Source of the DNA: Actinomycetales bacterium | GTDB taxonomy: Bacteria > Actinomycetota > Actinomycetes > JAJZTN01 | Reading direction: 5' to 3' | DNA length: 64,000 nt | Assembly (NCBI GenBank): GCA_051960855.1 | Contig: JBQCDV010000038.1 | Coordinates: forward strand, 2,625-66,624 | Shown here: piece after piece, positions 15,114 to 44,597 of the stretch | Numbering within the stretch: the first letter of the stretch is position 1 | Layout: each line of letters starts with the position of its first letter | The notes under the pieces: generated by a model | Seen by the model: the letters and a program-made list of their open reading frames with translations, nothing else | What the model was told of the DNA's origin: nothing | Database searches by the model: none | Position numbers and translations under genes: made by a program

Positions 15114-16154
15114 TCAGGAGCCGGAGGCAGGTGTGCGGTCGTGCTTGAGGTCGTCGAAAAGCCGCAGCGCGGCCTGACGGTCCCACTTCACAGTCGATCC
15201 CACAGGCGTGTGGTAGTCGGGGTCCGCCACCGGGACAGTCGTGCGGACACCGGAGGACCCCGCAACGGCCCGCATGGCCAGCGCCCAGCGCGCGACATCG
15301 AGGGGACCGCTCGCGTCGTCGACGGTCAGGGAGTCGCCGGCCGCGAGCGCGAGGCTGCCGAGCCGCCACGGCAGCAGGAGGGTGGTGGGGCTCGTGGCCT
15401 TGTCGCTGATCGCGCCCAGCACCTCACGCTGCCGCTCGACCCGGCCGAGGTCCCCGCGGGGATCGGAGTACCGCGCGCGGACATACGCCAGAGCTGTGGG
15501 ACCGGTGACCGTCTGGCAGCCGGCTTGGATGTGCAGCCCGGCCTTCGTGTCGTTCATCGCCCGTTTCGGGCACACCTGCACGCCGCCGACCGCGTCAACC
15601 ATGTCGACGAAGCCCAGAAAACCGATCTGCACGTAGTGGTCGATCCGCAGCCCCGTCACATTCTCGACGGTGGTGACCAGGAGAGGCGCGCCCCCGAAGG
15701 CGAACGCCGCGTTGAGCTTGTTGCGTCCGTGCCCCGGTATCGGCACGTAGGAGTCGCGGGGCAGGCTGACCAGCACCGAGGGTCCGCCGTTGTCCGGCAC
15801 GTGCAGCAGCAGGATCGTGTCGGTGCGCTGACCCTCCGCTCGCCCGGTATGCAGCTCTCGCCGTTGCTGCGGAGTCAGCTGCTCGCGGCCGTCGGAGCCC
15901 ACCATCAGGTAGTTCGTCCCCGCAGCGGCGGCGGGGCGGTCTCCCGAGCTGAAGGCGGTCACCTTGTCGACGCGCAGCCATGCCAGCGCCGCGACGACCA
16001 GCAGCGCCACGAGCACCACGGCGATGACGGCCACCAGCCATCGGACCCACCGGAACCGCCGGCGCCGGCGGGGTAGCGGCTGCGCCTCGCGAGGGTTGGG
16101 CGGCGGCGGGTCTGATCGGTAGATGACGTGGGTCGGCTCGTCGGGGCCGCTCAC
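15114..16154 (-). CDS. LCP family (LytR-CpsA-Psr) cell-wall glycopolymer ligase
   Basis: A single N-terminal TM segment, then 'NYLMVGSDGRE ... RTDTILLLHVP ... SLPRDSYVPIPGHGRNKLNAAFAFGG', the LCP catalytic core. Confidence 0.85.
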   Translation of the reverse strand: MSGPDEPTHVIYRSDPPPPNPREAQPLPRRRRRFRWVRWLVAVIAVVLVALLVVAALAWLRVDKVTAFSSGDRPAAAAGTNYLMVGSDGREQLTPQQRRELHTGRAEGQRTDTILLLHVPDNGGPSVLVSLPRDSYVPIPGHGRNKLNAAFAFGGAPLLVTTVENVTGLRIDHYVQIGFLGFVDMVDAVGGVQVCPKRAMNDTKAGLHIQAGCQTVTGPTALAYVRARYSDPRGDLGRVERQREVLGAISDKATSPTTLLLPWRLGSLALAAGDSLTVDDASGPLDVARWALAMRAVAGSSGVRTTVPVADPDYHTPVGSTVKWDRQAALRLFDDLKHDRTPASGS

Positions 16155-16188
16155 GCCGTCACCCCCGAGCCGGAACGCCGCTGCGTCG

Positions 16189-17664
16189 CTACCCGACGCT
16201 GCACGACTTCTCCTCGGCGGCGGTGTGGGTCTCGATCGTCCCGCCCGCGGTGCTCGTGCCGCTGGCGGACGGGGTCGGTGCTGCCGACGCCACGGTCACG
16301 GGCTTGAGGCCGGAGTAGTCGGAGCCGAGCAGCACCTGGAAGGTGCCCCCGAGACCGTCGACCTGAGTGAAGGTCGCGTCGGGCAGGGCTGCCTGGAGGG
16401 TCTTGACCGAACGGCTCCAGCGAGGGTCGTAACGGACCTCAGTGCTGGTCATCCCCGTCGTGTCCGCGTTGCCGGGGGAGCCGACGATGCGGAAGCCGGC
16501 CGCGCGGAAGTCGTCGGCGGCGCGCGTGGCGAGACCGGAGGTGCCAGCGGCGTTGAGCAGCTTCACCGAGATCTCCGACGGTGGCACCTCGGCGACGACG
16601 GCCGGGGTGGCCGACGGTGAGGGAGTCGGCGTCGGGGAGTTGATCGGCCGGTCGTTCTCGATGTCGCTGAAGAGCCGCTGGGAGAGCGTCTCGTCCCACA
16701 GCACCGCCGAGCCGACGCCGCCGGGACGGTAGTCCTCGTTGGCGATCGGGACGGTGGCGAACACGATTCGGTTGGCGGACACGTTGCGCAGCTGCTGAGC
16801 GAGGTCGACAACGTCCGAGCGGGACAGACCGGGGTCGGCGTCGACGGCGTCGAGGGCGGCGTTGACGAAGGAGAGCAGCTTGACGGGGTTGAAGAGGACG
16901 CCGGCGCTCGTGGCCTCCTGGAACATCGCCCCGATGAAGGCCTGCTGGCGGCGCATGCGACCGATGTCGCCCTTGCCGTCGAAGTAGCGGGCGCGGACGT
17001 ACTTCAGCGCCTCGATGCCGTCCATGTGCTGCAGGCCGGGCTGCAGGTCGAGGCCGGCCTTCTGGTCCTTGATGGGCTGGCGGACGCACACGTTGACGCC
17101 GTTCAGAGCGTCGACCATGTCGACGAAGCCGTTGAAGTTGACCTCGACGTAGTGGTCGATGCGGACGTTGGTGTTCTGCTCGACGGTGCGGACCAACAGG
17201 GGGGCGCCGCCGAAGGCGAACGCGGCGTTGAGCTTGTTGTGGGTGACGCCCACCTGCTCGCCGTTCGACTCGTGCGGAGGGATCGTCACGTAGCTGTCGC
17301 GCGGCAGGCTGACGACGATGGCGCGGTCACGGTCCGCGCTGATGTGCAGCAGCAGCATCGTGTCGGAGCGCTGCCCCGAGCCGTTGTCGGCTGTGGCGCG
17401 GCCGACATGCAGCTTCTTGATCTGCTGGGGCGTCAGGCCCTCGCGGTTGTCCGAGCCAACGATCAGGTAGGTGACCGCGTCACCGGTCGCGGGGTTCTTG
17501 GTCGGCCGGTCCTGCTCGTTGAGCCCCTTGAAGACGTCGTTGCGGTGGATGCGGCCGGAGGAGTAGGTCAGAGCGGCCCAGCCGCCGCCGCTGACGACGA
17601 GCACGAGCGCGCTCACGATCGTCGCGACGAAGGCCAGGGCTCGTCGCATCGCGTGATCGCGCAT
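16189..17664 (-). CDS. LCP family protein with C-terminal LytR_C-like domain
   Basis: A second LCP core ('TYLIVGSDNRE ... RSDTMLLLHI ... SLPRDSYVTIPPH ... KLNAAFAFGGAPLL') with a ~150-aa C-terminal extension ('KLLNAAGTSGLATRAADDFRAAGFRIV'). Paralogue of the adjacent gene. Confidence 0.85.
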   Translation of the reverse strand: MRDHAMRRALAFVATIVSALVLVVSGGGWAALTYSSGRIHRNDVFKGLNEQDRPTKNPATGDAVTYLIVGSDNREGLTPQQIKKLHVGRATADNGSGQRSDTMLLLHISADRDRAIVVSLPRDSYVTIPPHESNGEQVGVTHNKLNAAFAFGGAPLLVRTVEQNTNVRIDHYVEVNFNGFVDMVDALNGVNVCVRQPIKDQKAGLDLQPGLQHMDGIEALKYVRARYFDGKGDIGRMRRQQAFIGAMFQEATSAGVLFNPVKLLSFVNAALDAVDADPGLSRSDVVDLAQQLRNVSANRIVFATVPIANEDYRPGGVGSAVLWDETLSQRLFSDIENDRPINSPTPTPSPSATPAVVAEVPPSEISVKLLNAAGTSGLATRAADDFRAAGFRIVGSPGNADTTGMTSTEVRYDPRWSRSVKTLQAALPDATFTQVDGLGGTFQVLLGSDYSGLKPVTVASAAPTPSASGTSTAGGTIETHTAAEEKSCSVG

Positions 17665-17835: not shown

Positions 17836-19077
17836 TTACATCCCGTTGGTCTTCGCCGGCTTGCTCGCCGACTCACGTGCCGAGCCGCCCGTCGGCTCCG
17901 TCACCGGCTCGCTCGCCGCCGGCTGCTCGCTCACGGGCAGCGGGGGGCGCCTCCGGTCAGCCCTGTCATCCGCGCGCCGGCGCGCCCACTCGCGCATGCG
18001 TCGCTCGCACGGCTGCTCGACGGCGTAGTAGAGAGCAGCCGCTGCCGCCACCGCCAGGACTCCAACGAGGATGAGGAGGCCGATGTTCCGGTTGCCCTCG
18101 GGCTGCGGGCCGATGGTGAGCTGGAAGCAGCGGATCACGGTCTGGTGGACGAGGTAGAAGCAGTAGCTCCAGGCGCCGAGCAGCACGAGGGGCCGCCACC
18201 GGAAGATGCTGCGGCGCCCGTCGATATCCAGGAGCGCGGCGGCCCCGATGGCGCCGGCGAAGAGCAGCGGCGTGACGAGCCGGTCGGCGACCTGCAGGCC
18301 GAAGTCGAGCGCCGGCAGCTGGGCCCGGATGGCGAAGCGCACCGGGATCTGGACGATCACCCAGAGCAGGATCAGCGCGATCCACCCCCACAGCCACCCC
18401 GGCGGCCGCCACCCCCGCCGCATGACCGTCGCGAGCGTCATGCCGAGCACGAACTGCCAGAGGGTGAAGAGCGGAGTCCGGAACGCCCAGGTCTGGTCCT
18501 TGCCCGTGAGGAGGGCGAGGACGACCGCTGACACCGCAACGACCACTACCGCCAGCCCGGCCAGCAGTCCCAGCAGCTGCCGGTTGGTGCGGCGCTGCAG
18601 CGGGGCGACGAGGAAGGGGAACATGGCGTAGAAGAAGGCCTCGCACGACAGCGTCCACGACACCGGGTTGCCGGGAAAGGTCGGTTGGAGCCGGGGCACC
18701 CACGCCTGCACGAGGAAGACCGAGAGCAGCGCGGTCCACGTCAGGGGCTGTCCGGAGGCGAAGTAGAAGACCGGAACGGCCAGCACGATGCCGGCCAGGT
18801 GCGAGGGGTAGATGCGCGCGACGCGTCGCCAGTAGAACTGGGACCTCTCACCGCCCTCGCGCCACGACCACACCAGCACGAAGCCGGACAGGATGAAGAA
18901 GAACGTCACGCCTGCCGCGCCGTACTCGGTCTCCGGGTAGATCAGCGGGACCTTCGCGAGGCCGGTGGTCGGAGACGTGCCGTGGAAGTGGTGCACGAAC
19001 ACCGCGAGCGCGGCGAACCACCGCAGCCCCGTCAGGGAGTCGAGCCGCGGGGTAGCAGGTCGGGCGCCGGAAGCCAT
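17836..19077 (-). CDS. Acyltransferase family 3 membrane protein (O-acyltransferase)
   Basis: 'LDSLTGLRWFAALAVFVHHF' is an acyltransferase_3 N-terminus, followed by about 10 TM helices. Start set at the internal ATG (MASGARP) rather than the 19224 ORF start. Confidence 0.75.
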   Translation of the reverse strand: MASGARPATPRLDSLTGLRWFAALAVFVHHFHGTSPTTGLAKVPLIYPETEYGAAGVTFFFILSGFVLVWSWREGGERSQFYWRRVARIYPSHLAGIVLAVPVFYFASGQPLTWTALLSVFLVQAWVPRLQPTFPGNPVSWTLSCEAFFYAMFPFLVAPLQRRTNRQLLGLLAGLAVVVVAVSAVVLALLTGKDQTWAFRTPLFTLWQFVLGMTLATVMRRGWRPPGWLWGWIALILLWVIVQIPVRFAIRAQLPALDFGLQVADRLVTPLLFAGAIGAAALLDIDGRRSIFRWRPLVLLGAWSYCFYLVHQTVIRCFQLTIGPQPEGNRNIGLLILVGVLAVAAAAALYYAVEQPCERRMREWARRRADDRADRRRPPLPVSEQPAASEPVTEPTGGSARESASKPAKTNGM

Positions 19078-19103: not shown

Positions 19104-20220
19104 CCTCCGCGGCATGGCTGCCAGACGCCCGATGGACGACGACAGCCCGGCGGCGGGAGGTGACGACACCGTCGTCTGGCCTCCGGTCTCGGTGATCATG
19201 CCGGTGCTCGAGGAGGAGACCCACCTCGCCGAGGCGGTCGCCCGCGTGCTCGCCCAGGACTACCCGGGCGAGCTTGAGGTGGTGCTCGCGGTGGGACCGT
19301 CACGCGATCGCACCGAGGCGATCGCCGCCGAGCTCGCTGCCGCGGACGAGCGGGTCCGCGTCGTGCCCAACCCGACCGGCGCGACACCCTCGGGCCTGAA
19401 CGCCGCCCTGCGCGCCAGCCGCCACAGCATCGTCGTGCGCGTGGACGGGCACGGTCTCCTCTCTGACGGCTACATCCGCTCGGCTGTCCGGCTGCTGGAG
19501 GACACGGGGGCTGCCAATGTCGGAGGGACGATGGCGGCGGAGGGGACCGCGCCGCTCCAGCAAGCCGTGGCCTGTGCGATGCGCAGCCCGCTCGGGGTGG
19601 GCGGCGCCAAGTTTCACGTCGGCGGCGCCGAGGGCCCGGCCGAGAGCGTGTACCTCGGAGTCTTCCGCCGTGAGGTGCTCGAGGAGCTCGGCGGCTTCGA
19701 CGAGCGCTTTCGCCGCGCGCAGGACTGGGAGCTGAACTACCGCATCCGCACCAGCGGGCGCACGATCTGGTACTCCCCGACGCTGTCGGTGACCTACCGT
19801 CCCCGCGCCACCTGGCGGGCCCTCGCTCGGCAGTTCTTCCACACCGGACAGTGGCGGCGCCACGTCGTGCGCACCTATCCCGACACTGCTTCGCCGCGCT
19901 ACCTCGCGGCCCCGGTCGCTGTCGCTGGCATCGCCCTCGGGACCGCGATGGGGGTGACGGCCCAGGTGACAGCAGACCGCCACCCGGGCTGGGCCCGCCT
20001 GCTGCGGCTGGGTTGGGCAGCGCCCGCGGGGTATGGCGCGCTCGTGACCCTCGGAGGCTTTGCGATCACCCGGCAGCAACCGTGGCGCGTCCGCTCGCTG
20101 ATGCCGGCGGTGCTGGCCACCATGCACCTCACGTGGGGCGCGGGCTTCCTGGTGCCCGAACGGCAGAGCCATCCCGAACGGCAGAGCCATCCCGAACGGC
20201 AGAGCGACGGTGACGCATGA
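19104..20220 (+). CDS. Glycosyltransferase family 2
   Basis: 'VSVIMPVLEEETHLAEAVARVLAQDYPGELEVVLAV' GT-A N-terminus with DxD-type motifs. Diverges from the acyltransferase across a 26-bp spacer. C-terminus carries an 18-bp tandem repeat (ERQSHP x3). Confidence 0.8.
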
Positions 20221-23200
20221 GCGCCGACATCACGGTCGTTGTCATCGTCTACAACGACGCTGCTCGACTGCCCGCCGCCGTCGACTCCGTGGTGGCTCAG
20301 CAGCTTCCCACTGGTCGGACCCTCGAGGTCATCGTCGTCGATGACGCCTCGACCGACGGCTCCGGAGACGTCGCCCGCCACCTCGCGCAGACGCGCAGCA
20401 CGCCGAGCTGCGTCGTTCGGGCTCTGACCCTCCCCACCAACAGCGGCGGCTGCAGCCGGCCGCGCAACGTCGGGATCGACGCCGCGCAGGGCCGCTACGT
20501 GATGTTTCTCGACAGTGACGACGTGCTGCCCCCGGGTGCCTGCGCCGCGCTGCTCGCCGCCGCCGAGCGGGAAGCCGCGCCGGTCGCGGCCGGACTGTGC
20601 ATCCGACGGCATCTGGCGACGGGGCGTGACGAGCGCTGGTACCGCTACCTCTACGAGGCCGACGACGTCATCACCGACCTCGCGGACCGGCCCGACCAGC
20701 TCTACGACACGCTGTCGACCAACAAGCTGTACCTGCGTAGCTACCTCGACGAGCACGGGCTGCGCTTCCCGGAGGGCCTGCACTACGAGGACCTGCTCTT
20801 CTCGACCAGCGCCTATGTGACAGCCGCGCGCATCGCCATCACGGCCGCCCCCGTCTACATCTGGCACATCGCCGACGAGAGCGCGCCGGCCTCGATCAGC
20901 CACCGCCGCTTCGACCTGCGCAACTGGGCCGACCGGATGGAGGTGCACCGGCGTTCGGACGCGTACCTGCGGGAGGCGGGCGTCGCGGCGCACCTGCAGG
21001 GGGCCAAGGACCGCAAGTTCCTCAACCACGACCTCAAGCTCTTCCTCGAGGACGTCCTGACCTACCCCCCGGAACAGCGGACCCGGCTGCTCGACCTCGT
21101 CGCCGACTACCTGACAGAGCCGCGACCCGATGGCTTGCCGCCGGTGCTGGCCTCGGCCCCCGACGCGCATCGGCCCTCGCGCCTGGCGGCCTTCGTCGTC
21201 GCGGCCCGCGACCTTCCCCGGGTGCTGCAGGCGGCGAGGTTCTATGTCACCGGCCAGGTCGACTTCCCGGTCGTCGCGGGCGAGGACGACGGGGTGCGGC
21301 ACCTGCGCTGGGAGGCGCGGGAGCTGGCCGGCGCCGACCTCGACCTGTCGGACACCGGCTGGCTGAGCGCTCCGCTCTCCCTCGTCCCGATCGGCGCGGT
21401 CGTCACACACGTTGCGCTCGAGGAGCCCAGCGGCGAGCTGCGCCTCACCGGCCGGCTGTGGGACGTCGGTGGTCGCCTGTGGGGTGGGGACCCCGAGCTG
21501 CTCCTCGTGGTGCGCGGTGCGCTGGGGCGACTGCGGTGGTCTCGCCCGCTGTCCGCCGTCAAGCCGGCCTCACCGGCGGAGCCGTGGGGCTTCGACGTCC
21601 CCGTGGACCTGGCCGCCGTCGCGCAGGCGCTGCGACCGGTCGACCTTGCGCTGGGCTCAGGGCCCGTCCTGCGTATCGAGGCGACGCTGCAGGGCGAGAC
21701 CCGGCGCGTGCGGCTCGCGCTCGACCTCGCCGACCGCGACGTGCTCCCACTCGACCTCGGGACGCTCGGAACCCGCTGGGCCCCGCTGCTGGGACGCAGC
21801 TGGGGACTGACCGAGCAGCGGGGTGTCCTGACCCTGCAGTTCCCATCCGCCGCTGCCGCGGTCACGTCGACGGGTGCGCTCGTCCGGCGTGCCAGAAGCT
21901 CCGGCTACGCCGGGCGCCTGCGCCGTGCCGCCCGTGTCGGCGCGGCCATCGCCCGCCGCCGTCCGCCCGCCGACCTGGTCTTCCGGCTCGCGCAGCGGCT
22001 GCCGGTGCGTCCGGGCACCGCGCTGTTCGAGAGCCACCTGGGGCGGCAGTACAGCGACAGCCCGAAGTACGTCTACGAGGCACTCGTCCGCTCCGGGGCC
22101 CCGTGGCAGGTGACCTGGTCCTACGCCGACACCACCGCCGGCTTCCCCGCGTCGGCGAGGAGAGTGCGGCGCGGCAGCTGGCGCTGGGCGCTGGCGCTGG
22201 CCACCAGCGAGGTGTGGGTCGACAACCAGGGCTGGCCCCGATGGGTGACTAAGCGGCCCGAGCAGCGCTACCTGCAGACCTGGCACGGCACGCCCCTGAA
22301 GACGATGGGCTTCGACGAGCCGACCTTCAAGCGCGGCAGCGGCGCCGACCGAGCGCGGCTGCGCCGGATGGCCGAGCGCTGGGATTGGTTTGTGGCGCCG
22401 TCGCGCTACACCGAGGAGCGGCTCACCTCGGCGTTCGGCTACACGGGGGAGGTCCTCCGCGTCGGCTACCCGCGCAACGACCGGCTCGTCCGCCACACGC
22501 CGGGCGACGTCCGCGCGGTCCGGCACCGCTTAGGGCTGCCGGACGGCAAGCGCGTCGTGCTCTACGCGCCCACGTTCCGTGACGCCGCGCGGAAGGCCGG
22601 GACGCCGTTCTCGCTGCCTCTTGACCCTGCCGAGTTCGCCCGGCGCTTCCCGGACGCGATCCTGCTGGTGCGCACCCACTACCTCGACGAGTGGAGCGCG
22701 CCCGAGGGGCTGCACGACAGCGTCCGCGACGTCAGCGGCCATCACGACGTGACCGACCTGATGCTCGCCGCAGACGTCCTCGTTACTGACTACTCGTCGG
22801 TCATGTTCGACTGGGTGACGACGGGACGACCGGTCGTCTTCTTTCCCTACGACTACGACGACTACGTCCGCGACCAGCGAGGCACCTACTTCGACCTGCT
22901 TGCCGAAGCCCCCGGCCCGGTCGCGATGACGGCACCCGAGCTGCTCGACCTGCTGGCGCTGCCCGACGCCGAGCTACAGACCCGCTTCGCCGCCCGCTAC
23001 CGCGACTTCGTCGACCGGTACACCGACTACGAGACCGGGCATGCCAGCGAGTCCGCGGTCGAGGCCGTCTTCGGCGTGCCCGCGCCGGTGGCGGACGAGC
23101 CCCCCGCCGAACGGCGTCGCGTCGTGATCGTCGCCAACTCCATCGACACCCTCGGCGGTGTGCAGCGCGTCGGGCATGCCCTCGCCGCCGGCTTCGCCGA

Positions 23201-35441: not shown

Positions 35442-36418
35442 CGTGGTTGATCACTGGCGGAGCAGGCTTCATCGGGGCACATGTCGTCGCGGCGATGCGC
35501 GCGGCTGGAGAGAGCGTCGTGGTGCTCGACGATCTGTCGACGGGCAACCGCGAGAGCGTTCCGGGCGACGTGCCGTTCGTCGAGGCATCGGTGCTGGACC
35601 TCGAGGCCGTGCGCCAGGCGATGCGCGACCACGAGATCGACGGCGTCGTGCACATCGCCGCCAAGAAGCAGGTCGGCGAGTCCGTCGACAAGCCACTGGC
35701 GTACTACTGGGAGAACGTCGAAGGCCTGCGCCGGCTCCTGCAGGCGTGCGTGGACGAGGGCGTGGACCGCTTCCTCTTCTCGTCATCCGCCGCGGTGTAC
35801 GGCAACCCGCCCGTGTCCGTGGTCGAAGAGGACACTCCCTGCGCCCCAGAGAGCCCCTACGGCGAGACGAAGCTGATCGGGGAGTGGCTGCTGCGCGACG
35901 TCGCACGGGCCCACGGGCTGAAGTGGCTGGCACTGCGCTACTTCAACGTGGCGGGCGCCGCGGCTCCGGAGCTGGGAGACCCGGGTGTGTTCAACCTGAT
36001 CCCCATGGTCTTCGAGCGGCTGACCGACGGGAAGGCTCCGCTGATCTTCGGCGACGACTACCCGACGCCGGACGGGACCTGTATCCGCGACTACATCCAC
36101 GTCGCGGACATCGCCTCCGCCCACGTGGCTGCCGCCGCGGCCATTCGAGACGGTCGGGAGACCGCCGGTGTCCTCAACATCGGCCGGGGCGAGGGGGTAT
36201 CCGTCCGTGAGGTCGTCGACCTGGTCCTCGAGGTCACCGGCCGCACCGATGTTGACCCGGAGGTCGTCGGACGCCGGGCGGGTGACCCCGCCGCCTACGC
36301 CGCTTCCGGCCGTGCCATCCGGCAGCGGCTCGGCTGGGCGCCGCAGCACGACCTTCAGGACATGGTGAGCTCGGCGTGGGCGGGATGGGTCAGGCGCCAC
36401 CCCGACGCGCTTCGCTGA
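35438..36418 (+). CDS. galE: UDP-glucose 4-epimerase
   Basis: 'MTWLITGGAGFIGAHVV' and 'YGETKLIGE' are short-chain dehydrogenase/reductase (SDR) epimerase motifs. ATGA overlap with the upstream GT2. Confidence 0.85.
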   Translation: MTWLITGGAGFIGAHVVAAMRAAGESVVVLDDLSTGNRESVPGDVPFVEASVLDLEAVRQAMRDHEIDGVVHIAAKKQVGESVDKPLAYYWENVEGLRRLLQACVDEGVDRFLFSSSAAVYGNPPVSVVEEDTPCAPESPYGETKLIGEWLLRDVARAHGLKWLALRYFNVAGAAAPELGDPGVFNLIPMVFERLTDGKAPLIFGDDYPTPDGTCIRDYIHVADIASAHVAAAAAIRDGRETAGVLNIGRGEGVSVREVVDLVLEVTGRTDVDPEVVGRRAGDPAAYAASGRAIRQRLGWAPQHDLQDMVSSAWAGWVRRHPDALR

Positions 36419-38384
36419 GCTGCTCTCGCGCGGTCAGCTCTCGGACGCGCTGGTAGCGGCGGAGCGCCAGGGGATCGCCGTTCAGCTCTGGGGCGGGGGC
36501 CCAGCCGGGCCGCACGTCGGTCGCCGTCTCGAGGAACTTCTGCTCGTCTGCCTCCCACGTGTGTCCCAGGGAGTGCCGACACAGCACATAGCCCTGGCTC
36601 GTCGTGCGGTAGATCCCACCGCCCGCGTCGCGCACCGCAGTGAGCAGGTGCAGGTCGACGCCGCGTGGCTGAGGAGCCCAGCCGCCCACCGCCGCAAGGT
36701 CCTCTGCACGGATGAGGATGGTTCCGCCTGCCACCCACTCGACGTAGCGCTCCGGGCTCGCCTCGACGCGCCGGTGCAGCGTGCGGTCGGACGTCGCCAG
36801 GTACACCCATTCGACGAGCATCCCGGTCACCGTCGCTCCCGACCACGTCGAGGCTTGCACCAGGTCGGTGAGGTGATGCGGGCCGTACCAGTCGTCATCG
36901 TCGAGTTTCGCGAGGAATGCCCCGGACGCGGCGCGTGTGGCGTGCTGAAGGACGGTTCCCAGAGGGAGGTCCGCCGAGGCGGCAAGCATCTGGACCGCTA
37001 TGCCGCGTTCACGGAGGGGGGCCAGGAGCCGATCGAGCTCGGCGGCAGGCACGTCCAGGTCGTGCAAGGCCAGCACCAGCTCCAGTTCGCCATGGGCGGC
37101 GAAGTCCTGCCGGGCCACCGTGGCGAGGGCCAGGTCGAGGTAGGACAGGCGCCGGGTCGCCAGGAGGACTGAGACCGAGGGGCGGCGCGGGCCGAGGGCC
37201 CGCAGGCCGGCCCCGTCAAGGAGGCGACGCCATGCGCCGACTGTTGCGTGGTCGCGCAGAGCAGCCCTGCGCAGTTGCAAGGAGTGGAGCTCGCGCTCGT
37301 CGGGGCCGCCCTCACAGGCCTCGTGGCCTCTCGCATGCGGGGAGGCGAGCAACTCGGAAAGTTCAGCGCCTACGAGCCGGTTCACGGTCAGCGGCAGCCG
37401 GTCCCCCGAGATGGGTACCTGGGCGGCGGCGAGCTGTGTGATGAGTCGGGCGGCTGTGATTGGCGCGACGTCGCCCAGGGCGCTCACGTCCACAGACCGC
37501 AGCCTCCGGAGGGGATGCAGGTGTCGGAACGACAGGGGCGCTTGTCCTCGGCCGAGGTCGACGACGACCGCGTCGTCGTCGTCGACGACCCGGAGGCGTC
37601 CGTCGGTGACGAAGCGCCCGACACCGTGAATCTGATCCCGCTGAAAACCGTGGGGGTTGCAGGTGATGACGTCGACGGGCGGCACGCACTCGGACACGAG
37701 CAGCCGCGCGGGGCCGCCGTGCTGCTGCTCGTTCGGGTCCAGCTCGCCCACGCCCAGCACCACATCGAAGGGCGAGATGTGCGGGTTGTCGGATCGCCAG
37801 GTGTGGTGGGCGTTTGCCACGGTGCGAGCCGCAGAGTCCCCCGACACCCAGGCGAGGTCTACGCCGTCCTCAACACCGACGCGCATTCCCGCCAGCGGCA
37901 GGCGCCGGCGCCCGAGCTCGCTAGCCGCGAGCAGCGTTGACAGTACTGCGTGAACGCGGACGGCGGCTGGCAGCTGGACACGCAGCTGCACTCCGCGAGC
38001 GGGTGCGGGCAGCTGTTCGAGACTCGCCCGAACCGCTGGGCCCAGCCGGGGATCTGAGAGCGAGATGGCGCCTCCCCGGCCGACCCACGGCTCCTCGGTG
38101 ATGAGTTGTACGACACGACTCCGCCCGAGCGACGGCGCAACAGCAAGCAGCGTGCGAAGCTCGGCGAAGCTCGAACACGCGATGACCACGCGCTCCCAGG
38201 TCCGCGCGTAGTCCTCCAGCGCACCCACCGAAGGTGCGGGCCACTCGAGCCGCTGGCAGTCGGGGGGCAGGTCGGGTGCCCCCTTCTCGACTGCAAGGTC
38301 GCTCGCGCCCGCTAGGAGCAAGCACGTCCCAGCCTCGGCACCTGGTGAGGTCACGGCACACTCCCACGTGTTGCAGCCCGGCAT
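36390..38384 (-). CDS. Large glycosyltransferase: a ~400-aa N-terminal domain of unknown function plus a C-terminal GT2 domain
   Basis: C-terminal 'SVSVLLATRRLSYLDLALATVARQ ... FLAKLDDDDWYGPHHL' is GT-A with DxD. No motif was recognised in the N-terminal region. The 3' end overlaps galE by 29 bp. Confidence 0.6.
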   Translation of the reverse strand: MPGCNTWECAVTSPGAEAGTCLLLAGASDLAVEKGAPDLPPDCQRLEWPAPSVGALEDYARTWERVVIACSSFAELRTLLAVAPSLGRSRVVQLITEEPWVGRGGAISLSDPRLGPAVRASLEQLPAPARGVQLRVQLPAAVRVHAVLSTLLAASELGRRRLPLAGMRVGVEDGVDLAWVSGDSAARTVANAHHTWRSDNPHISPFDVVLGVGELDPNEQQHGGPARLLVSECVPPVDVITCNPHGFQRDQIHGVGRFVTDGRLRVVDDDDAVVVDLGRGQAPLSFRHLHPLRRLRSVDVSALGDVAPITAARLITQLAAAQVPISGDRLPLTVNRLVGAELSELLASPHARGHEACEGGPDERELHSLQLRRAALRDHATVGAWRRLLDGAGLRALGPRRPSVSVLLATRRLSYLDLALATVARQDFAAHGELELVLALHDLDVPAAELDRLLAPLRERGIAVQMLAASADLPLGTVLQHATRAASGAFLAKLDDDDWYGPHHLTDLVQASTWSGATVTGMLVEWVYLATSDRTLHRRVEASPERYVEWVAGGTILIRAEDLAAVGGWAPQPRGVDLHLLTAVRDAGGGIYRTTSQGYVLCRHSLGHTWEADEQKFLETATDVRPGWAPAPELNGDPLALRRYQRVRELTAREQLSEARRGGA

Positions 38385-38558
38385 GATCGGTGGTCGCCGC
38401 AGCGTAGCGAGGCCCTACCCTCGACTGTCGTGCCTCGTCGACGACTGCTCCCCTGGCGTTCCGGTGTCGAGTCCGCAATTGCCGTCGAGCCAACGAGCGC
38501 CTCTCGCCGGATCGATAGCCGCTGCTCGCGGCAGTGGCCCCTTCCCGTCCGCGTTGGC

Positions 38559-39917
38559 ATGGCGACGATCCCAGCGCGTGAGTCGGGGCTTCGGGTCGTC
38601 GTGGAGTCGATGCTCGATCAGGCTGAAGAAGTGTGTGTATACCTCAACGGATATGAGGAGGTCCCTGACTGGCTCGCTGCGGCCCCCCGGGTTGTTGCGC
38701 GACTTGGCGAGGATCTTGGCGACCGAGGCAAGTTCGCGTTTGTTGATGGCTTCGATGGGGTCTACCTGACGGTCGACGACGACATCGCCTACCCGCCCGA
38801 CTATGTCGCGGCCACGGTGTCCGGACTCCAGCGGTACCCCGGCGCCGTGGTGGGCTGGCACGGGAGCCTCCTCGATCCGGACATCACCGACTACTACGAC
38901 CACAGCAAACGCCACGTGTTCAATCACGGCAGGGCGTGCCTGCGCGATGAGGTCGTCCACGTGCTCGGGACGGGTGCACTCGGCTTCGATACTCGTGCGC
39001 TGAGCGTCTCCCTCCGCGACTTCGAGGTCCCTAACACCGCTGACCTCTACTTTGCGCGGCTGTGTCAACGACAGGCCGTGCCCCAAGTGGTTCTCGCTCA
39101 CCCTCCGGGGTGGGCGCCGCCGATCCCTTTTCCCCGTGAGGCCACGATCTGGGGTGCCTCTGTAGACAACAACGCCTCGAGGTTCGACACGCGCACCGCA
39201 GCGGCCGCGCTTCTGCCCGAGCTGGCTGCCATGCGCCTGTCGACCCTGGCTACGGCCGGTCCGCTGGCCGTCTTGCGGGTCCGCGACGCTGAGCGAGCCG
39301 TCGGAGTGGAGGCAGCCCTTCGGACGCTCCTGATGCCCTTCCGGATCGCTGTCGCGACCATTGCTGACGAGGCTGCCCACAGTGCTGGCGCTGCCCCGAT
39401 GACTGCCACCGACTCGGGCGCTGCAGAAAACCGTCCGTCCGGCTGGACGGTCTCAGCGGCCACCGACGGAGGGACGCTCGTGTTGACCGGCGACCACGGA
39501 AGGGTGCGCTTTCCGTGGCCGCTGCTGCTGGGCCCCGACACCGCCGCGGTGGACCCGAGCGGCGTGGTCCTCGCGGCAGAACCAGAGCGGCATGCCTCGC
39601 TTACAAGGCGGCTCGCCGAAGAGGAACTGCACCATGTGACCGTGGTCAACCCCCTATCGCCGCTCGACCGTCATCCCGGGCAACTGCTGCTGTGGGCCAT
39701 CCCTCGACTCGCCGGCGCGCCTGACGATGGCACTTGCTTGGCTGCAGCGGCGTTCGAGCCGGTCGTCGAAGCCGACCTCGTTGCGACGGTGCGCCGGCTT
39801 CTTGACCGCCCCGACGTGGCGGCGGCCATGCTGGACGCACAGCTGGCGGCAACTGGCCGGCGGGCGCGAACAAAATGCGGGTCTGCGCTCTGGAACTGGC
39901 TGCAGGAGCAGGCCTAG
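38559..39917 (+). CDS. Putative GT-A fold glycosyltransferase (DXD)
   Basis: 'MATIPARESGLRVVVESMLDQAEEVCVYLNGY ... YLTVDDDIAYPPDYV' resembles nucleotide-diphospho-sugar transferases. Start set at the internal ATG. Visibly lower GC than the window average. Confidence 0.45.
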   Translation: MATIPARESGLRVVVESMLDQAEEVCVYLNGYEEVPDWLAAAPRVVARLGEDLGDRGKFAFVDGFDGVYLTVDDDIAYPPDYVAATVSGLQRYPGAVVGWHGSLLDPDITDYYDHSKRHVFNHGRACLRDEVVHVLGTGALGFDTRALSVSLRDFEVPNTADLYFARLCQRQAVPQVVLAHPPGWAPPIPFPREATIWGASVDNNASRFDTRTAAAALLPELAAMRLSTLATAGPLAVLRVRDAERAVGVEAALRTLLMPFRIAVATIADEAAHSAGAAPMTATDSGAAENRPSGWTVSAATDGGTLVLTGDHGRVRFPWPLLLGPDTAAVDPSGVVLAAEPERHASLTRRLAEEELHHVTVVNPLSPLDRHPGQLLLWAIPRLAGAPDDGTCLAAAAFEPVVEADLVATVRRLLDRPDVAAAMLDAQLAATGRRARTKCGSALWNWLQEQA

Positions 39918-41068
39918 AGCGACAGCAACGCGAATTCCTGCTCCCACCGATCCGCAACGACCTGAGGGCTGAACCGCTGGACCGACGCGTGCGCTGCCTC
40001 ACCCAGGCGACGGCGCAGCGTCGGGTCGACCATGAGCCGCTCCATCGCAGCGGCTAGCGCGTCGAGGTTGCCTGGCGGAAGCACGAGTCCGTCGGACTCG
40101 TCGGTCACGAGCTCGCGCACTCCTGGTGCCACGTCGAAGGCGATGCACGGAAGGCCGTACTCCATTGCCTCCGTGAGGACGACCGGCATTCCCTCGCTAC
40201 GTGACGACAGCACGTAGATCGAGGCCTCCTGCAGGGCTGCACCGACGTCGGTCGTGGCACCCATGAGCTGGACGCTCCCCTGCAGCTCGAGTTCGTCAAT
40301 CTGCTCCTGGAGTGACGCCCGGAGCGGCCCGTCCCCGTAGATCCGCAGCCGCCATTCCGGGTGGCGAGGGGTCAGGCGAGCCCAGGCGGAGATGAGCATG
40401 TCGAAGCCCTTCTCCGGGGCCAAGCGCCCAAGAGACACGACGGTGGGAGCAGTGAGGTCGCTCGTGCGTTCAGCGAGGACGCCTAGTGGGTTGGGAATGT
40501 AGCCCGCGTTCGTCATCCCGTCGAAGGCCCACAGGTCCGCGTCGCGCTGTGTCAGGAGCAGGAACCGATCCGCTCCCGCAAAGAAGCGCTTCACTCGGGC
40601 GTATCGCCCTGACTGACGTGAGGCCTGATAGGACTCGTGGCTCATTCCGATGACCAACGCTCCGGCAGTGTCTGCCAACCGCACCCACTCCATCGCCCAG
40701 ACTTGGGTAACGATGACAATCGGGTCGTCGGCCTGCCGAATCAGTGCCGTCAACTTCGCGGCGCCGCTGCGCTGGACGGAAACGCGGCGCCGGCGCTCGA
40801 TCTGGCGCCTGACATTGAGATTGTGCAGCAAGTGCGGCGGATGCCAGTAATTTGGCGGGTCCGCCTCATGAAGAATGGTGACAGGGTGTCCGTAGGTCGC
40901 CGGGTCATAGTGAGCATCGCGAGAGTGGACGATGCCGACCAGACGGACACGGTAGCCCCTTCCCGCAAGAAGCTCCGCGAGCGACAGGACGAAGCGGGTC
41001 ATCCCTCCCAGGTCCTCGATGTTGTTGGCCACGATGAAGACGTCGCGGGAACGGATCTGATCGCTCAC
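39914..41068 (-). CDS. Glycosyltransferase family 4 (group 1)
   Basis: 'VFIVANNIEDLGGMTRFVLSLAELLAGRGYRVRLVGI ... EGMPVVLTEAMEYGLPCIAFD'. GTG start overlaps the upstream stop (GTGA). Paralogous to the C-terminal domain of the 1345-aa fusion. Confidence 0.8.
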   Translation of the reverse strand: MSDQIRSRDVFIVANNIEDLGGMTRFVLSLAELLAGRGYRVRLVGIVHSRDAHYDPATYGHPVTILHEADPPNYWHPPHLLHNLNVRRQIERRRRVSVQRSGAAKLTALIRQADDPIVIVTQVWAMEWVRLADTAGALVIGMSHESYQASRQSGRYARVKRFFAGADRFLLLTQRDADLWAFDGMTNAGYIPNPLGVLAERTSDLTAPTVVSLGRLAPEKGFDMLISAWARLTPRHPEWRLRIYGDGPLRASLQEQIDELELQGSVQLMGATTDVGAALQEASIYVLSSRSEGMPVVLTEAMEYGLPCIAFDVAPGVRELVTDESDGLVLPPGNLDALAAAMERLMVDPTLRRRLGEAAHASVQRFSPQVVADRWEQEFALLSL

Positions 41069-43899
41069 TGCGGAAGCTCCACCAGCTCTGGAAACAGATC
41101 GTCGACGACTTGACGGGCCGCGTCGCCGCGGTCGTACTCGCAGTAGGAGGCGAGGAAGCGGTCGTAGCGGGCGGCGAACTGCGGCTGCCACGAGTCGACG
41201 TCCGACAGCCTCTCGACCAACTCATCTGAGGTCTCGACAAGTGGGCCGGGAGCCTCCTGCGAGAGATCGAAGTACGCGCCGCGCTCACTCGACACGTAGC
41301 TGTCATAGTCGTAGGTGTAAAAGATCATCGGCCGGCCGGTGAGAGCGAAGTCGAACATCACCGAGGAGTAGTCGGTGACCAGAAGGTCGGCCGCAAGCAT
41401 CAGTGGCGTGATGTCGGGAAGCTGCGAGACATCCCGAGCCACATGGCGTGCGGACTCCGGCAGTCGCGAGCGGTCGAGGTAGTGCGACCGCACGAGCAGC
41501 AGAGTGCCGGGCAGCTTCTCGGCGAAGGCCTGGAGGTCGATCGGCAGTTCAAACTCTTCGTGGCCGCCGCGGTAGCTCTCGCGAAAGGTGGGCGCATAGA
41601 GCACGATGCGCCGGTCCTCTGGAAGCCCAAGCGCGCGCCGCGCGGCGACTTTGGCCTCGGTGTCGGCGCCAACGAGAGGATCGTTGCGGGGGTAGCCAGT
41701 TCGCAAGAGTTGCCCCGTCACGTGCAATCCCCGGACGAGTGTCCGGACATCGTGCTCGCTCCGCACCAGGAAGTCATCCCACCGCGCCACCATGGCCCGG
41801 TGCGCGGCGCGAGCCACATCGCTCTGGCGCAGGAGACCCGGGCTGTCCTCGCCCATCCGCTTGAGCGCGCTCCCATGCCAGGTCTGGAGGTATCGGACCC
41901 GACCGGGTTTGACCACGTCGCGGGGAAATCCTTGGTTGTCAACCCACACCTCAGCGCGGGCGAGGGCCATCCACCAGGCCCAAGACCCGCGTTTCACGAG
42001 GCTCGCGGAGCGCGGAAATCCACTGCGGTCGCGGGCGTAGGACCACACCAGCTCCCAGCGCTCGGCGTCTGGGCGTCCGTCCAGTCGGCGTCGTAGCTCC
42101 TCGTACACGTATTTTGGAGAGTCGGAGTAAGACCGTCCCATATGGCTCTCAAAGACGACGGTGCGACGACGGCGCGGCAGGTGTGTCAGCACCGTCCGGA
42201 AGACACTCGCCTTCGTGTCCTGGCTTGCTAGGGAGGTGGTGAGCTCCTTCCGAAATGCTCGAAGCCTGTCCCGAAGCACTGAAGCGGCGGAGCCAGCTGC
42301 CACGGTGCGCACCAGCTCATCCGCAGCGCGGGTCGATCGCCGCATCGCGGTCGCCTGCAGCGCGAGGTTGCCGTTGCGGGTCCGGTAGGTCTCAACCGCG
42401 TCGAACAGAGCGGCCGGTTGGCGCCGGGCGAGTGGGACGACAGCGGGCGCCGCGTCGGGAGGGAGCGAGAGCGGAAGGTAGGCCTCGTCCCGGCCGACCT
42501 GGATGCGCAGGTTGACGTCCCAGACCCGGTCGAGCGGAGTGCGGGGCGTGACGAGCTGACCGACGGGCACAGCCGCCCGCCAGCGCACCATCCCGTCCGT
42601 GAATTCCACGTCCGTGGCAGGAACCTCGCCGCCGGCAGTCCCACCGCGCTGCCGGACCCGGACGGTGAACACGGCGTCCCGTGGGATGCGACCAAAGTGG
42701 TTGCGCGTTTCTGCGCTTATGTTGAGTCGTCGAGGGTCGCACGAGAGCTCGCTGATGGTCGATGTCAGCGGCAGCTTCGCGAGAGGTAGGTCCTGCCAAC
42801 CGAGGCTCGTCACATCGAGCCACTCGCGATCTTCGGCGTCCTGCGGGAGACCCCAGAAGATGCGGCCGCCCTCGCGGACGAGGTCGACGTCGAGCTTGCG
42901 GCCCTGCGTGAGGTAGGCGCTCAAGGCCACGAGGCGGCGCGCGTCACGGCGCCGGATCAGGTGGGCGGCGACCGCTAGCAGCCGATCCGCCTTGTCGTAG
43001 GCCTCAGGACCGATGTGCTCGAGATAGGCACCCATGAGTGTCATGAACCGCTCGTGGAACTCCGGCGTCCGCAGCGGCAGGTCGTTCAGGTAGAGCCGCA
43101 GGTCCTGCTTGAGAAACTTGACGTCCTTGTGGTTGCGCAGTTCCTCGCGGCCGTGCTCCGCGAAGAAGGCGTCGATGTCGTGGTGGATCGAGAGGCGGTT
43201 TTCGAGCCCGGTGATGTCGTCGCGGCGGTTGGTGATGGAGAGGCTCGTCGCTTTCTCGGCGACGTTCCAGAAATAGACGACGGGCGGGATCAGGGTGATA
43301 CCGCGTGCAAGACAGTAGGCCTTTGCCGTGAAGAGCAGGTCCTCATACTGGCGCCCATCCGGGAACCGAAGACCCTCACGGTCGAGGAACTCACGACGGT
43401 AGAGCTTGTTGGTCGAGATGGTGTCGTAAAGAAGGTCTGGTTGTTCGTCGACGTCCTGGTAGGTCACCGTCGAGCGGTAGAGCCATTCGTACCAAGGCGT
43501 CACGCGACCGCCCTGATCGAGATGCACACGCACAATGCGGCCCGAGACGATGTCGCTGCCGGTCCGCACCGCCGCCTCGTAGAGATTGCGACAGGCGTGG
43601 TGATCGATCGTGTCGTCGCTGTCCAGGAAGAAAAGGAAGGGGGCCGAGCTCGCGGCGATGCCGGCATTGCGAGGCGTTCCGGGCGCCCCCGAGTTGGTGT
43701 CCAGCCGCACGAAGCTGACCCGGTCGTGATCGCGAGCCAGCTGCGCGGCGACCTCGGGTGTGTTGTCGGTCGAGGCGTCGTCGACGATGACGACCTCGAC
43801 CGCGCGAAGCGACTGCGCCAAGGCAGAGGCCACCGCCTGCGGGAGCCGGTTCGGATCGTTGTGGACGATGACCACTACCGCGACAAGAGCATCGGTCAC
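41065..43899 (-). CDS. Bifunctional GT2 glycosyltransferase plus CDP-glycerol glycerophosphotransferase (TagF family)
   Basis: N-terminal '[24 protein letters not shown] ... [12 protein letters not shown] ... FLDSDDTI' is GT2. C-terminal '[13 protein letters not shown] ... VLYAPTFRE ... [11 protein letters not shown] ... [11 protein letters not shown]' is TagF-like. Start set at the GTG overlapping the scoB stop. The ORF is open to 44127. Lower GC. Confidence 0.75.
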
Positions 43900-44597
43900 G
43901 CGGGCGACCCCGCCGCGTTGCGAACGTCGTTGCTGTCGCCTCCGTCGGCGACCGGGTGCAGGTCGGGGGCCACGATGAGCGACGGCTCGGTCTTGTCCCG
44001 GACCTCCTCGACGGTGACGCCGGGGGCGAGCTCGCGCAGCACGAGCCCCTCCGGGGTGACGTCGATGACCGCGAGGTCCGTGATGATCCGCTGGACTACG
44101 GCCTTGCCGGTGAGCGGCAGGGCGCACTCGTCGACAATCTTGTAGCTGCCGTCTTTGGCCACGTGCTCCATCAGCACGATGACCTTCTTCGCGCCGTGGA
44201 CGAGGTCCATGGCGCCACCCATCCCCTTGACCATCTTGCCGGGGATCATCCAGTTGGCCAGGTCTCCGCTCGCCGACACCTGCATGGCTCCGAGGATGGC
44301 TGCGTCGACGGCGCCGCCCCGGATCATTCCGAAGCTCAGCGAGGAGTCGAAGAAGACCGCTCCCGGCAGCAGGGTGACGGTTTCCTTGCCGGCGTTGATG
44401 AGGTCGGGATCCTCGTCGCCTTCGTAGGGGTAGGGGCCGACGCCGAGGATGCCGTTCTCGCTCTGGAGCACGACGGTCACGCCCTCGGGAAGGTAGTTGG
44501 GCACCAGCGTCGGCAGCCCGATGCCGAGGTTGACGTAGGCGCCGTCCGGCAGCTCGCGGGCCGCGCGCGCGGCCATCTGCTCGCGGGTGAGAGCCAT
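43896..44597 (-). CDS. scoB: 3-oxoacid CoA-transferase subunit B
   Basis: '[30 protein letters not shown] ... ENGILGVGP'. ATG overlaps the scoA stop (TGATG). Confidence 0.85.

Follow-up and report, generated by a model that had tools for sequence, protein, structure and literature searches.

A teichoic-acid-type gene cluster with a predicted glycerol-1-phosphate-based precursor cassette in an actinobacterium

A 64-kb stretch of DNA from an uncultured Actinomycetales bacterium (contig JBQCDV010000038.1 of assembly GCA_051960855.1), analysed here in full and called the window, carries at positions 15114-44127 a run of 19 consecutive genes, 18 of envelope-glycopolymer function and one encoding a DUF222 protein. 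Many neighbouring genes overlap by 1-14 bases, including overlaps of stop and start codons, and a series of 18 such genes out of 19 is far beyond chance. The interpretation that we hold to be probable, though by no means secure, is that one or two wall glycopolymers containing phosphate, most plausibly of the poly(glycosyl-glycerol-phosphate) type, are assembled in the cytoplasm by enzymes of the locus, exported by its ATP-binding cassette (ABC) transporter and attached to peptidoglycan by its LCP enzymes. While a teichoic-acid-type cluster is a known kind of system, its precursor supply, which appears to dispense with TagD and to combine an sn-glycerol-1-phosphate dehydrogenase (G1PDH)-like enzyme with CDP-alcohol phosphotransferases, seems to be a new part, and one that is widespread.

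The G+C content of the window is about 72%, and genes were called by frame analysis of third-position GC (GC3), since raw lists of open reading frames (ORFs) at this composition are full of shadow ORFs. All called genes were scanned against Pfam and NCBIfam. A preliminary description of this DNA, made from the letters, had recognized in the cluster the teichoic-acid logic of LCP ligases, TagF and an ABC-2 exporter, together with departures from the Bacillus/Staphylococcus scheme. Its gene list at 15114-44127 is borne out by the GC3 frames and the family scans: the logic is present at the family level, with a CDP-alcohol supply, and the departures are real in the window, namely domain fusions, CDP-OH phosphotransferases and the absence of TagD and TagO. 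The list needs amendment in that one minus-strand ORF (19300-20190) is the shadow of a glycosyltransferase (GT) gene, as detailed below, and a DUF222 gene at 26520-28214 had gone unmentioned. The window proteins belong to a metagenome-assembled genome (MAG; protein accessions MGN6686345-76), and near-identical copies are encoded by three sibling MAGs.

The precursor cassette

The module previously assigned to CDP-polyol synthesis holds up at 28276-33708 of the minus strand and can be refined to a cassette of G1PDH-like, LicC-like and CDP-alcohol phosphotransferase genes. The G1PDH-like protein (353 aa; 30040-31101, minus strand; Pfam Fe-ADH_2, 2.2e-30) matches NF002022, the model of NAD(P)-dependent glycerol-1-phosphate (G1P) dehydrogenase, at 3e-73 and 246.8 bits, as against 65 bits for glycerol dehydrogenase, and aligns with the M. 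jannaschii G1PDH (4rgq) at 2e-42. The motifs GIGGGR..D..K, G.GD.VSN, SRP.SG..H...HA.D and HG are kept in that alignment; their residues, which we take to be metal and substrate residues, are invariant in 24 homologues. The ATG of this gene overlaps the TGA of the upstream nucleotidyltransferase gene as ATGA (257 aa; 31101-31874, minus strand; Pfam NTP_transferase, 1.1e-9). The nucleotidyltransferase finds its best match in the Protein Data Bank (PDB) in LicC, a CTP:phosphocholine cytidylyltransferase (1jyk, 2.6e-12), and matches the NCBIfam IPCT/DIPPS model at 4.8e-10; we propose it as a CTP:glycerol-1-phosphate cytidylyltransferase. The two genes adjoin one another in every one of 83 related loci.

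No called gene of the 64 kb matches PF01467, the family to which TagD belongs. A B. subtilis TagD query, validated against 1coz, also found no TagD-like sequence in the window by tblastn in six frames at E<=10, and TagD tblastn of 84 related loci (about 1.5 Mb) returned a single chance-level match of 19 residues and nothing else. The G1PDH-like scores, the match to LicC, the invariable adjacency of the pair, the ATGA coupling and this lack of TagD-like sequence together lead us to favour CDP-glycerol made from sn-G1P, the mirror image of glycerol phosphate that is associated with archaea. A CDP-2-glycerol route, as in the pneumococcal Gtp1-3 set of dehydrogenase, kinase and cytidylyltransferase, is disfavoured because the conserved cassette has no kinase-like gene.

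The larger of the two CDP-alcohol phosphotransferases (606 aa; 31888-33708, minus strand; CDP-OH_P_transf 8e-9, DUF5941 3e-7) is laid out as a cytoplasmic N-terminal domain, a membrane domain with the canonical motif and a DUF5941 block of extra transmembrane (TM) helices. It keeps the signature D..DG..AR..G...D...D as DCVDGQLARYAVSYSERGAWLDAALD at residue 222 and scores 36 bits on PF01066 against a cut-off of 22. Its AlphaFold model (pLDDT 71) is matched best in Foldseek by AF2299 (4q7c/4o6m), at E 4e-5 over about 340 columns that take in the cytoplasmic and membrane domains; the DUF5941 part of the model has no Foldseek match. Entry 4q7c is a CDP-glycerol complex of AF2299. The phosphotransferase and DUF5941 parts are joined by a PAPEPGPAPEPGPGPAPEP linker, a short low-complexity repeat (32700-32760, minus strand).

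For the smaller phosphotransferase (287 aa with at least five TM segments; 29184-30047, minus strand; CDP-OH_P_transf 7e-7, 30 bits against a Pfam cut-off of 22), the best NCBIfam matches are archaetidylinositol-phosphate synthase and DIPPS. Its motif, D..DG..AR..G...D...H, reads DCSDGEVARWTGRLSLLGVYLDRVGH; histidine replaces the fourth signature aspartate in 51 of 52 orthologues (loci L023-L081), the co-encoded large enzyme keeping the aspartate. The remaining member of the cassette is a GT2 (318 aa; 28276-29232, minus strand; Pfam Glycos_transf_2, 1.2e-7), which has counterparts near the nucleotidyltransferase/G1PDH pair in 32 of 57 related loci, at about 51% identity and always beside the small phosphotransferase. 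This and the other neighbour counts given here refer to the 57 loci with full 10-kb flanks, at E<=1e-8 unless stated otherwise.

Family membership, motifs and synteny suggest the following pathway. The G1PDH-like enzyme would convert dihydroxyacetone phosphate to sn-G1P, and the coupled LicC/IPCT-like nucleotidyltransferase would combine this with CTP to give CDP-glycerol, in place of TagD. At the inner face of the membrane, the two CDP-alcohol phosphotransferases, which may work as a large/small pair, would act together with the cassette GT2, using CDP-glycerol on a lipid-linked acceptor and constituting a glycerophosphate primase or extension system distinct from TagF. Two paralogous units, one consisting of a GT2-TagF enzyme and a GT4 and the other a fused GT2-TagF-GT4, would alternate the transfer of glycerol phosphate and sugar and add side-chain sugars, their substrates being presumed. 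GalE would provide UDP-Gal, and further GT-A enzymes and an acyltransferase would decorate the product. To judge from their families, the TagH-like/ABC-2 exporter would flip the polymer on its lipid, and both LCP enzymes would join it to peptidoglycan.

Polymer assembly, export and attachment genes

Both TagF-type domains of the preliminary description are well supported (Glyphos_transf, E 4e-98 and 1.5e-90) and keep their catalytic histidines. One belongs to a GT2-TagF-GT4 tri-domain enzyme (1345 aa; 20217-24254, plus strand; Pfam assignments; PDB 3l7i, 2.4e-71) and the other to a GT2-TagF bi-domain enzyme (1020 aa; 41065-44127, minus strand; Glyphos_transf 1.5e-90, GT2 1.9e-29; 3l7i, 9e-70). 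The latter is accompanied by a GT4 gene (39914-41191, minus strand; Pfam Glycos_transf_1, 2.7e-42) whose true start is probably near 41050-41068, beside the stop of the upstream gene. On PF04464 (Glyphos_transf) the two domains score 329 and 304 bits against a cut-off of 22; both align with S. epidermidis TagF (3l7i) at E of about 1e-70, and the equivalents of its H444 (QTWHGTPLK) and H584 (R-x-HYL) are present in both. Neither reaches the cut-off of the TarF, TarL or TarB equivalog models. Other PDB matches of both domains are TarL (8va1) and Cps3D (8qoy), the latter at 2e-37 and 5e-27. The N-terminal GT2 domains of the fusions resemble TarS (5tze)/TarP, and the C-terminal GT4 resembles TarM and SdgB.

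The 1345-aa protein is a paralogue, in fused form, of the 1020-aa GT2-TagF and the 425-aa GT4, the identities being 38% (GT2), 52% (TagF) and 43% (GT4). Actinobacteria very commonly have the two-domain form (about 930-960 aa), which is followed by a separate GT4 gene in the loci examined. Among 571 homologues of the 1345-aa protein at E<=1e-20, the best 120 have two domains and 813-979 aa, with the exception of the 90% cluster of the window's own MAG. The GT2-TagF fusion is commonplace in actinobacteria, GT2-TagF-GT4 being the only unusual version.

An earlier count of five or more GT2, one GT-A and two GT4 enzymes agrees with what the scans found: six GT2 domains (one of them weak, at the C-terminus of 36390-38384), two GT4 domains and a Pfam-less protein with a DDD motif, probably the 'GT-A' then meant (38430/38559-39917, plus strand). 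The GT2 at 19114-20220 (plus strand; Glyco_tranf_2_3 3.9e-21, Glycos_transf_2 1.8e-20, Glyco_transf_21 5e-5) has hydrophobic C-terminal segments, and its stop overlaps the start of the 1345-aa gene as ATGA. Its region is kept beside an LCP gene in 27 of the 57 loci. The minus-strand ORF at 19300-20190 was at first taken for a conserved unknown gene on account of tblastn matches in 27/57 loci; as the plus frame has the higher GC3 (0.87 over 19114-20220, against 0.74 in the minus frame) and encodes the GT2, those matches are antisense shadows. A low-complexity repeat, SHPERQSHPERQS, lies at the C-terminus of this GT2 (20150-20220, plus strand).

A further GT2 (567 aa; 33738-35441, plus strand; Pfam Glycos_transf_2, 2.5e-30) has a stop overlapped by the start of the UDP-glucose 4-epimerase gene (35438-36418, plus strand), whose assignment as galE stands (TIGR01179, 2.8e-102, 342 bits against a cut-off of 262). 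In comparisons of the two small GT2s with PDB sequences, only generic GT-A matches were found. The 664-aa protein at 36390-38384 (minus strand) combines an unassigned N-terminal part with a GT2-like C-terminus that bears a DDDD motif (Glycos_transf_2 5.6e-4, 20.3 bits, under the cut-off of 23.3), and has no counterpart in the related loci. The Pfam-less presumed glycosyltransferase (452-495 aa; 38559-39917, or from 38430) has no match in Pfam or NCBIfam. Its N-terminal ~220 aa form a DxD-bearing domain with 2617 representative homologues at E<=1e-3, and five of seven multi-domain homologues checked (817-1620 aa) add GT2, GT4 and/or FkbM/SAM-methyltransferase domains to it, which points to a previously undescribed glycan-synthase domain family found in large polysaccharide synthases. 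A single-sequence AlphaFold model of the 495-aa form has a pLDDT of 37.5. The GC content falls to 0.65-0.68, the minimum of the window, over 38000-44000, a part comprising the 495-aa protein, the GT4 and the GT2-TagF, and is 0.70-0.75 in other parts of the cluster; over the GT2-TagF gene it is 0.65-0.67. The low-GC part may be a variable one or a later acquisition.

The TagGH/Wzm-Wzt-like ABC exporter recognized at the outset is confirmed at the family level (ABC_tran, ABC2_membrane), and the membership of the exporter genes appears clear by family, not by equivalog. The ATPase (425 aa, with N- and C-terminal extensions; 24251-25528, minus strand; Pfam ABC_tran) is TagH/Wzt-like: its best NCBIfam matches are the teichoic-acid export (TagH) models, at 3e-57 and 1.8e-54 (194 and 185 bits against cut-offs of 538 and 320), followed by galactan Wzt. 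An RBS-like GGGGAGGAG precedes its ATG at 25528. The ABC-2 type permease (25515-26708, minus strand, although the true start may lie downstream of 26708; Pfam ABC2_membrane, 8.8e-14) is matched best by galactan Wzm/RfbD (2.7e-17, 63 bits against a cut-off of 380). The DUF222 gene (26520-28214, plus strand; Pfam DUF222, 2.8e-10) separates the ABC genes from the cassette GT2, to which they are directly adjacent in Streptomyces; with homologues in only two of the 57 related loci, it looks like an insertion into the operon and probably stands outside the pathway.

At the other edge of the cluster, Pfam matches support the two LCP ligases and the acyltransferase_3 reported before. The LCP family glycopolymer ligases are a protein of 346 aa with one N-terminal TM helix (15114-16154, minus strand; LytR_cpsA_psr 1.1e-45), which has a 62% identical counterpart in the Sporichthyaceae locus L004, and an LCP + LytR_C protein of 491 aa (16189-17664, minus strand; LytR_cpsA_psr 1.6e-49, LytR_C 4.7e-13). 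They score 144 and 160 bits, respectively, on the LCP domain model TIGR00350 (cut-off 62), and PF03816 is also matched. The acyltransferase_3 membrane protein (17836-19077, minus strand; Pfam Acyl_transf_3 2e-32, with hydropathy peaks) is a candidate O-acylase of the polymer. Its ORF is open to 19224, the ATG at 19077 being the likelier of the candidate start codons, and no counterpart was found in the related loci at E<=1e-3.

The flanks contain purK/purE, a GtrA-like gene, cofD/cofE, whiB, manC, pmm and manA. The genes manC (48960-50075), pmm (59046-61082) and manA (62122-63447) lie downstream as reported, and ugd is indeed upstream (8102-9424), not 'just upstream': three unrelated genes, encoding an acyl-CoA dehydrogenase, an FAD protein and a PAS-GGDEF-EAL protein, intervene between it and the cluster. 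These surroundings appear to resemble the Rv3255c-Rv3277 stretch of M. tuberculosis, where its essential LCP ligase is encoded. They would then be a chromosome context shared by actinobacteria, and for this reason ugd and manC/pmm/manA cannot be assigned to the cluster. The PAS-GGDEF-EAL gene (c-di-GMP turnover; 12377-14992, minus strand) directly abuts the first LCP gene, and a regulatory link between its product and the polymer is possible. Right after the cluster, an ORF at 45541-47976 (plus strand), the true start of which is probably well downstream of 45541, encodes a protein in which a SpoIID/LytB domain is combined with three cell-wall-binding repeats of the CWB2 type. In Clostridioides, such repeats hold proteins to a secondary wall polymer that is anionic, and by analogy this protein might bind the product of the cluster. 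Just downstream of whiB, a 1160-aa protein (53372-56854, plus strand; first-position GC 0.84) has a GT2 domain confined to its first 250 residues and about 900 further residues without family assignment. The 90% cluster of the window's WhiB takes in Flexivirga, Terracoccus and Nocardioidaceae. Rfam and tRNA scans of the window gave no matches, and a promoter/terminator scan gave no signals above shuffle level.

Distribution and relation to known systems

Homologues of the G1PDH-like protein number 6,888 at E<=1e-10 in a 90%-clustered database, mostly at about 60-72% identity, and at least 534 stretches in one-genome-per-species data encode a relative, the closest in that genome collection being 71% identical. 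Relatives occur in Micromonospora, Streptosporangium, Actinomadura, Nonomuraea, Spirillospora, Nocardioides, Sporichthyaceae, Frankiales and Solirubrobacteraceae. The cassette together with the ABC exporter is conserved in Streptomyces, Streptosporangiales, Sporichthyaceae and Solirubrobacteraceae. Near the nucleotidyltransferase/G1PDH pair, the small phosphotransferase is found in 34/57 loci, the large one in 33/57, the ABC genes in 15-21/57, and an adjoining LCP+LytR_C gene with its neighbouring GT2 in 27/57; Micromonospora has a conserved trio of the nucleotidyltransferase, the G1PDH-like gene and one phosphotransferase. In Sporichthyaceae-type MAGs the cassette runs directly into GT2-TagF and GT4 genes in the same orientation, beside LCP genes, and the order GT2-TagF then GT4 also holds in loci L001-L004. 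These Sporichthyaceae-type loci, in which cassette, GT2-TagF and GT4 form one operon beside LCP genes, support a joint reading of TagF and cassette. The cassette also appears to be modular. In Streptosporangium longisporum (locus L036; 5514-9149, 12895-13770) it is accompanied by an IspD-like cytidylyltransferase and, just downstream, a PfkB kinase; DUF5941 is there a separate ORF of 220 aa, and the N-terminus of the large phosphotransferase is NTP_transf_3-like. This lineage may thus produce a second CDP-polyol.

The same cassette is present in Streptomyces venezuelae and S. coelicolor. In S. venezuelae (locus L084, 10001-16981) it is a seven-gene operon in the order large phosphotransferase, nucleotidyltransferase, G1PDH-like gene, small phosphotransferase, GT2, ABC permease and ABC ATPase, which are the same genes in the same order as in the window, bar the DUF222 insertion, at 45-70% identity (54% for the GT2, 50% for the permease, 70% for the ATPase). 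Unlike the window, L084 stands alone, with no TagF or LCP gene within 10 kb and no GalE or acyltransferase gene nearby; immediately downstream of the cassette are a TetR gene and hopanoid genes (two SQS_PSY, an amine oxidase and a polyprenyl synthase). A 2026 synteny survey describes the Streptomyces cassette genes as orphan clusters with tagG, tagH, araM and crtB, 'associated with teichoic acid biosynthesis'; its account is one of annotation-level synteny and includes no experiment on the cassette (PMC13118837). The literature searched yielded no experimental study of the cassette.

A second Streptomyces locus, L085, lies beside obg-rpmA-rplU and holds a GT2-TagF gene (44% identical over 948 aa), a GT4 (47%), a GalE-like epimerase (62%) and a GT2 (46% to 33738-35441), that is, four genes at 44-62% identity to those of the window; unlike the window, it is unlinked from the cassette and has neither the fused paralogue nor the extra glycosyltransferases. 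Because the cassette and the GT2-TagF/GT4/epimerase/GT2 block are conserved separately and are unlinked in Streptomyces, the supercluster of the window is a union of two blocks, to which the second LCP, the acyltransferase, the fused paralogue and the 664-aa and 495-aa proteins are lineage-specific additions. By gene order, L085 is the region near pdtA (SCO2578), PdtA being the ligase of poly(diglycosyl-1-phosphate) (PMC7831098, PMC11481543). A LytR_C-containing gene and then a nadD-like gene are found nearby. The latter, which belongs to PF01467, was considered as a TagD and rejected: from its 205 aa and its position beside the LytR_C gene we read it as nadD-type, consistent with the description of SCO2579 as a nicotinate-nucleotide adenylyltransferase (PMC7831098).

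Compared with the tag genes of B. subtilis 168 and the tar genes of Staphylococcus, the window shares TagF-family domains with their histidines, LCP ligases, an exporter ATPase whose best matches are TagH models, though below their cut-offs, and TarS/TarP-like GT2 and TarM-like GT4 domains. It differs in having no TagD, TagO, TagA (GT26) or separate TagB, in precursor genes that encode a G1PDH-like and an NTP_transferase-family enzyme, and in its two CDP-alcohol phosphotransferases and polymerase-GT fusion. Similar in architecture are Cps3D and Cps7D of Actinobacillus pleuropneumoniae, Gram-negative capsule polymerases that build poly(glycosyl-glycerol-phosphate), in which a TagF-like domain is also fused to one or more glycosyltransferase domains and export is also ABC-transporter-dependent (8qoy; PMC8262930). 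The window enzymes have another domain order and other GT families, with GT-A N-terminal and, in one copy, GT-B C-terminal, and these domains may form either backbone or side-chain links; their host is Gram-positive and has LCP attachment, and a TagD-type GCT (Cps3B/7B) is found only in the capsule loci.

The cassette itself also has parallels in archaea. As with IPCT/DIPPS and AF2299 of Archaeoglobus fulgidus (4mnd, 4o6m, 4q7c), the predicted chemistry runs from polyol phosphate and CTP to CDP-polyol and on to an alcohol acceptor, and in the model the N-terminal and membrane domains of the large enzyme superpose on AF2299, the window enzyme having the DUF5941 membrane block in addition. The archaeal IPCT/DIPPS enzymes make soluble osmolytes, whereas the window genes are embedded among a GT2, an ABC exporter, LCPs and TagF. 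The G1PDH-like protein shares the Fe-ADH_2 fold family with archaeal EgsA and B. subtilis AraM, and G1PDHs are its best model and best structures; it differs in scoring below the equivalog cut-off and in a context of polymer export, not ether-lipid synthesis. No GGGP-synthase/PcrB-like gene is among the family-scan matches of the window. Actinobacterial homologues group with G1PDH in published trees, and the part of that work available to us gives the group no function (PMC5059525).

Competing readings and biological meaning

Several observations count against a wall polymer built from sn-G1P by cassette and TagF enzymes together. The 247 bits of the G1PDH-like protein fall below the NF002022 equivalog cut-off of 413, so that its substrate is not certain. 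The small phosphotransferase, having no fourth aspartate, may be a non-catalytic partner or use an altered catalytic base. Of the TagF-like polymerases, Cps3D is inactive with pure CDP-1-glycerol; that Cps7D can polymerize from it in vitro speaks for the reading (PMC8262930). No priming enzyme lies within the window, in whose called genes PF00953 (TagO/WecA) and TagA (GT26) have no match; the absence of TagO from the locus is, however, expected rather than remarkable, the priming GlcNAc-1-P transferase presumably being encoded elsewhere in the genome. Only about seven of the 57 full loci have a TagF domain no farther than 10 kb from the nucleotidyltransferase/G1PDH pair (5/57 at E<=1e-8, ~7/57 at E<=1e-3), and cassette and TagF block are unlinked in Streptomyces. 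With the blocks so rarely linked, the TagF enzymes could draw CDP-glycerol from a TagD-type enzyme outside the window. The polymer, its phosphate content and its linkage to the wall are, moreover, all predicted from genes.

Two independent pathways could also lie side by side, an arrangement that we judge unlikely. The TagF block, with TagD encoded elsewhere, would then make an sn-glycerol-3-phosphate teichoic acid, and the cassette would make and export something else, such as a poly(glycerol phosphate) that is anchored in the membrane like lipoteichoic acid. The self-contained Streptomyces cassette, which includes an ABC exporter and has neither TagF nor LCP genes within 10 kb, fits this well, as do the separate Streptomyces locus for the GT2-TagF/GT4/epimerase/GT2 block and the fact that most loci have no TagF near the cassette. 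Actinobacteria, furthermore, make lipoteichoic acid of the poly(glycerol phosphate) type without LtaS (PMC3196553), so an unassigned pathway for it must exist in them. Yet there is one ABC exporter for both blocks in the window and in the Sporichthyaceae-type loci, where GT2-TagF and GT4 stand directly after the cassette GT2 in the same orientation; LCP genes flank the cassette in 27/57 loci, and no related locus examined has a TagD.

Quite improbable, in our estimate, is a cassette that makes a small molecule or lipid head group unrelated to the wall polymer, be it phosphatidylglycerol produced in Kennedy fashion from CDP-sn-1-glycerol and diacylglycerol or a glycerophospho-diester solute like that of Archaeoglobus. 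The closest characterized relatives of both phosphotransferases are indeed PIP/AIP synthases and IPCT/DIPPS, the phosphatidylglycerol head group has sn-1 stereochemistry, and Micromonospora keeps only the nucleotidyltransferase, the G1PDH and one phosphotransferase; however, the regular company of the cassette is a GT2, an ABC-2 polymer-type exporter whose ATPase is matched best by TagH, and LCP ligases, and in some lineages it shares an operon with TagF/GT4. We give even less credence to a secreted exopolysaccharide or capsule that is not wall-bound, or that has no phosphodiester backbone, with TagF adding only an occasional glycerol-phosphate decoration. The two LCP ligases at the edge of the cluster, one of them conserved beside the cassette in many genomes, and two full-length TagF domains with intact catalytic histidines argue against such a product, and no Wza/Wzc or Wzx/Wzy-type gene was detected among the Pfam and NCBIfam matches of the cluster genes. 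In its favour are the many glycosyltransferases, GalE and the acyltransferase of the locus, an ABC exporter that resembles Wzm/Wzt too, and the adjoining PAS-GGDEF-EAL gene, which recalls loci for c-di-GMP-controlled exopolysaccharides.

We therefore retain, as the probable reading, a teichoic-acid-type cluster that assembles, exports and attaches its own wall polymer. A bolder proposal, which we offer tentatively and regard as doubtful at present, is that the cassette is the missing route by which Actinomycetota make glycerol-phosphate polymers with neither TagD nor LtaS. An archaeal-type G1PDH would then feed a hitherto unrecognized CTP:sn-glycerol-1-phosphate cytidylyltransferase. Membrane CDP-alcohol phosphotransferases, rather than TagF or LtaS, would prime and/or polymerize sn-G1P on the lipid carrier, and from the cassette product the TagF fusions of the window would build polymers linked to the wall.

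Chemical descriptions of actinobacterial wall and lipoteichoic acids go back a long time, but the genetics of these polymers is poorly known. Poly(glycerol phosphate) lipoteichoic acid is made there, yet without LtaS (PMC3196553), and very little is known of wall glycopolymer biogenesis in Streptomyces (PMC11481543). Most bacteria are assumed to contain no free sn-G1P, and no gene has been assigned to the cytidylyltransferase activity of A. fulgidus that prefers G1P (PMC8262930). By bringing a G1PDH-like enzyme, a candidate cytidylyltransferase, phosphotransferases, an exporter, TagF and LCP together in one operon-dense cluster, the locus offers a concrete hypothesis for all three gaps. Should that hypothesis prove wrong, the locus would still be a well-annotated example of an actinobacterial teichoic-acid-type cluster; should the tentative route hold, the long-noted actinobacterial homologues of G1PDH would gain a function.

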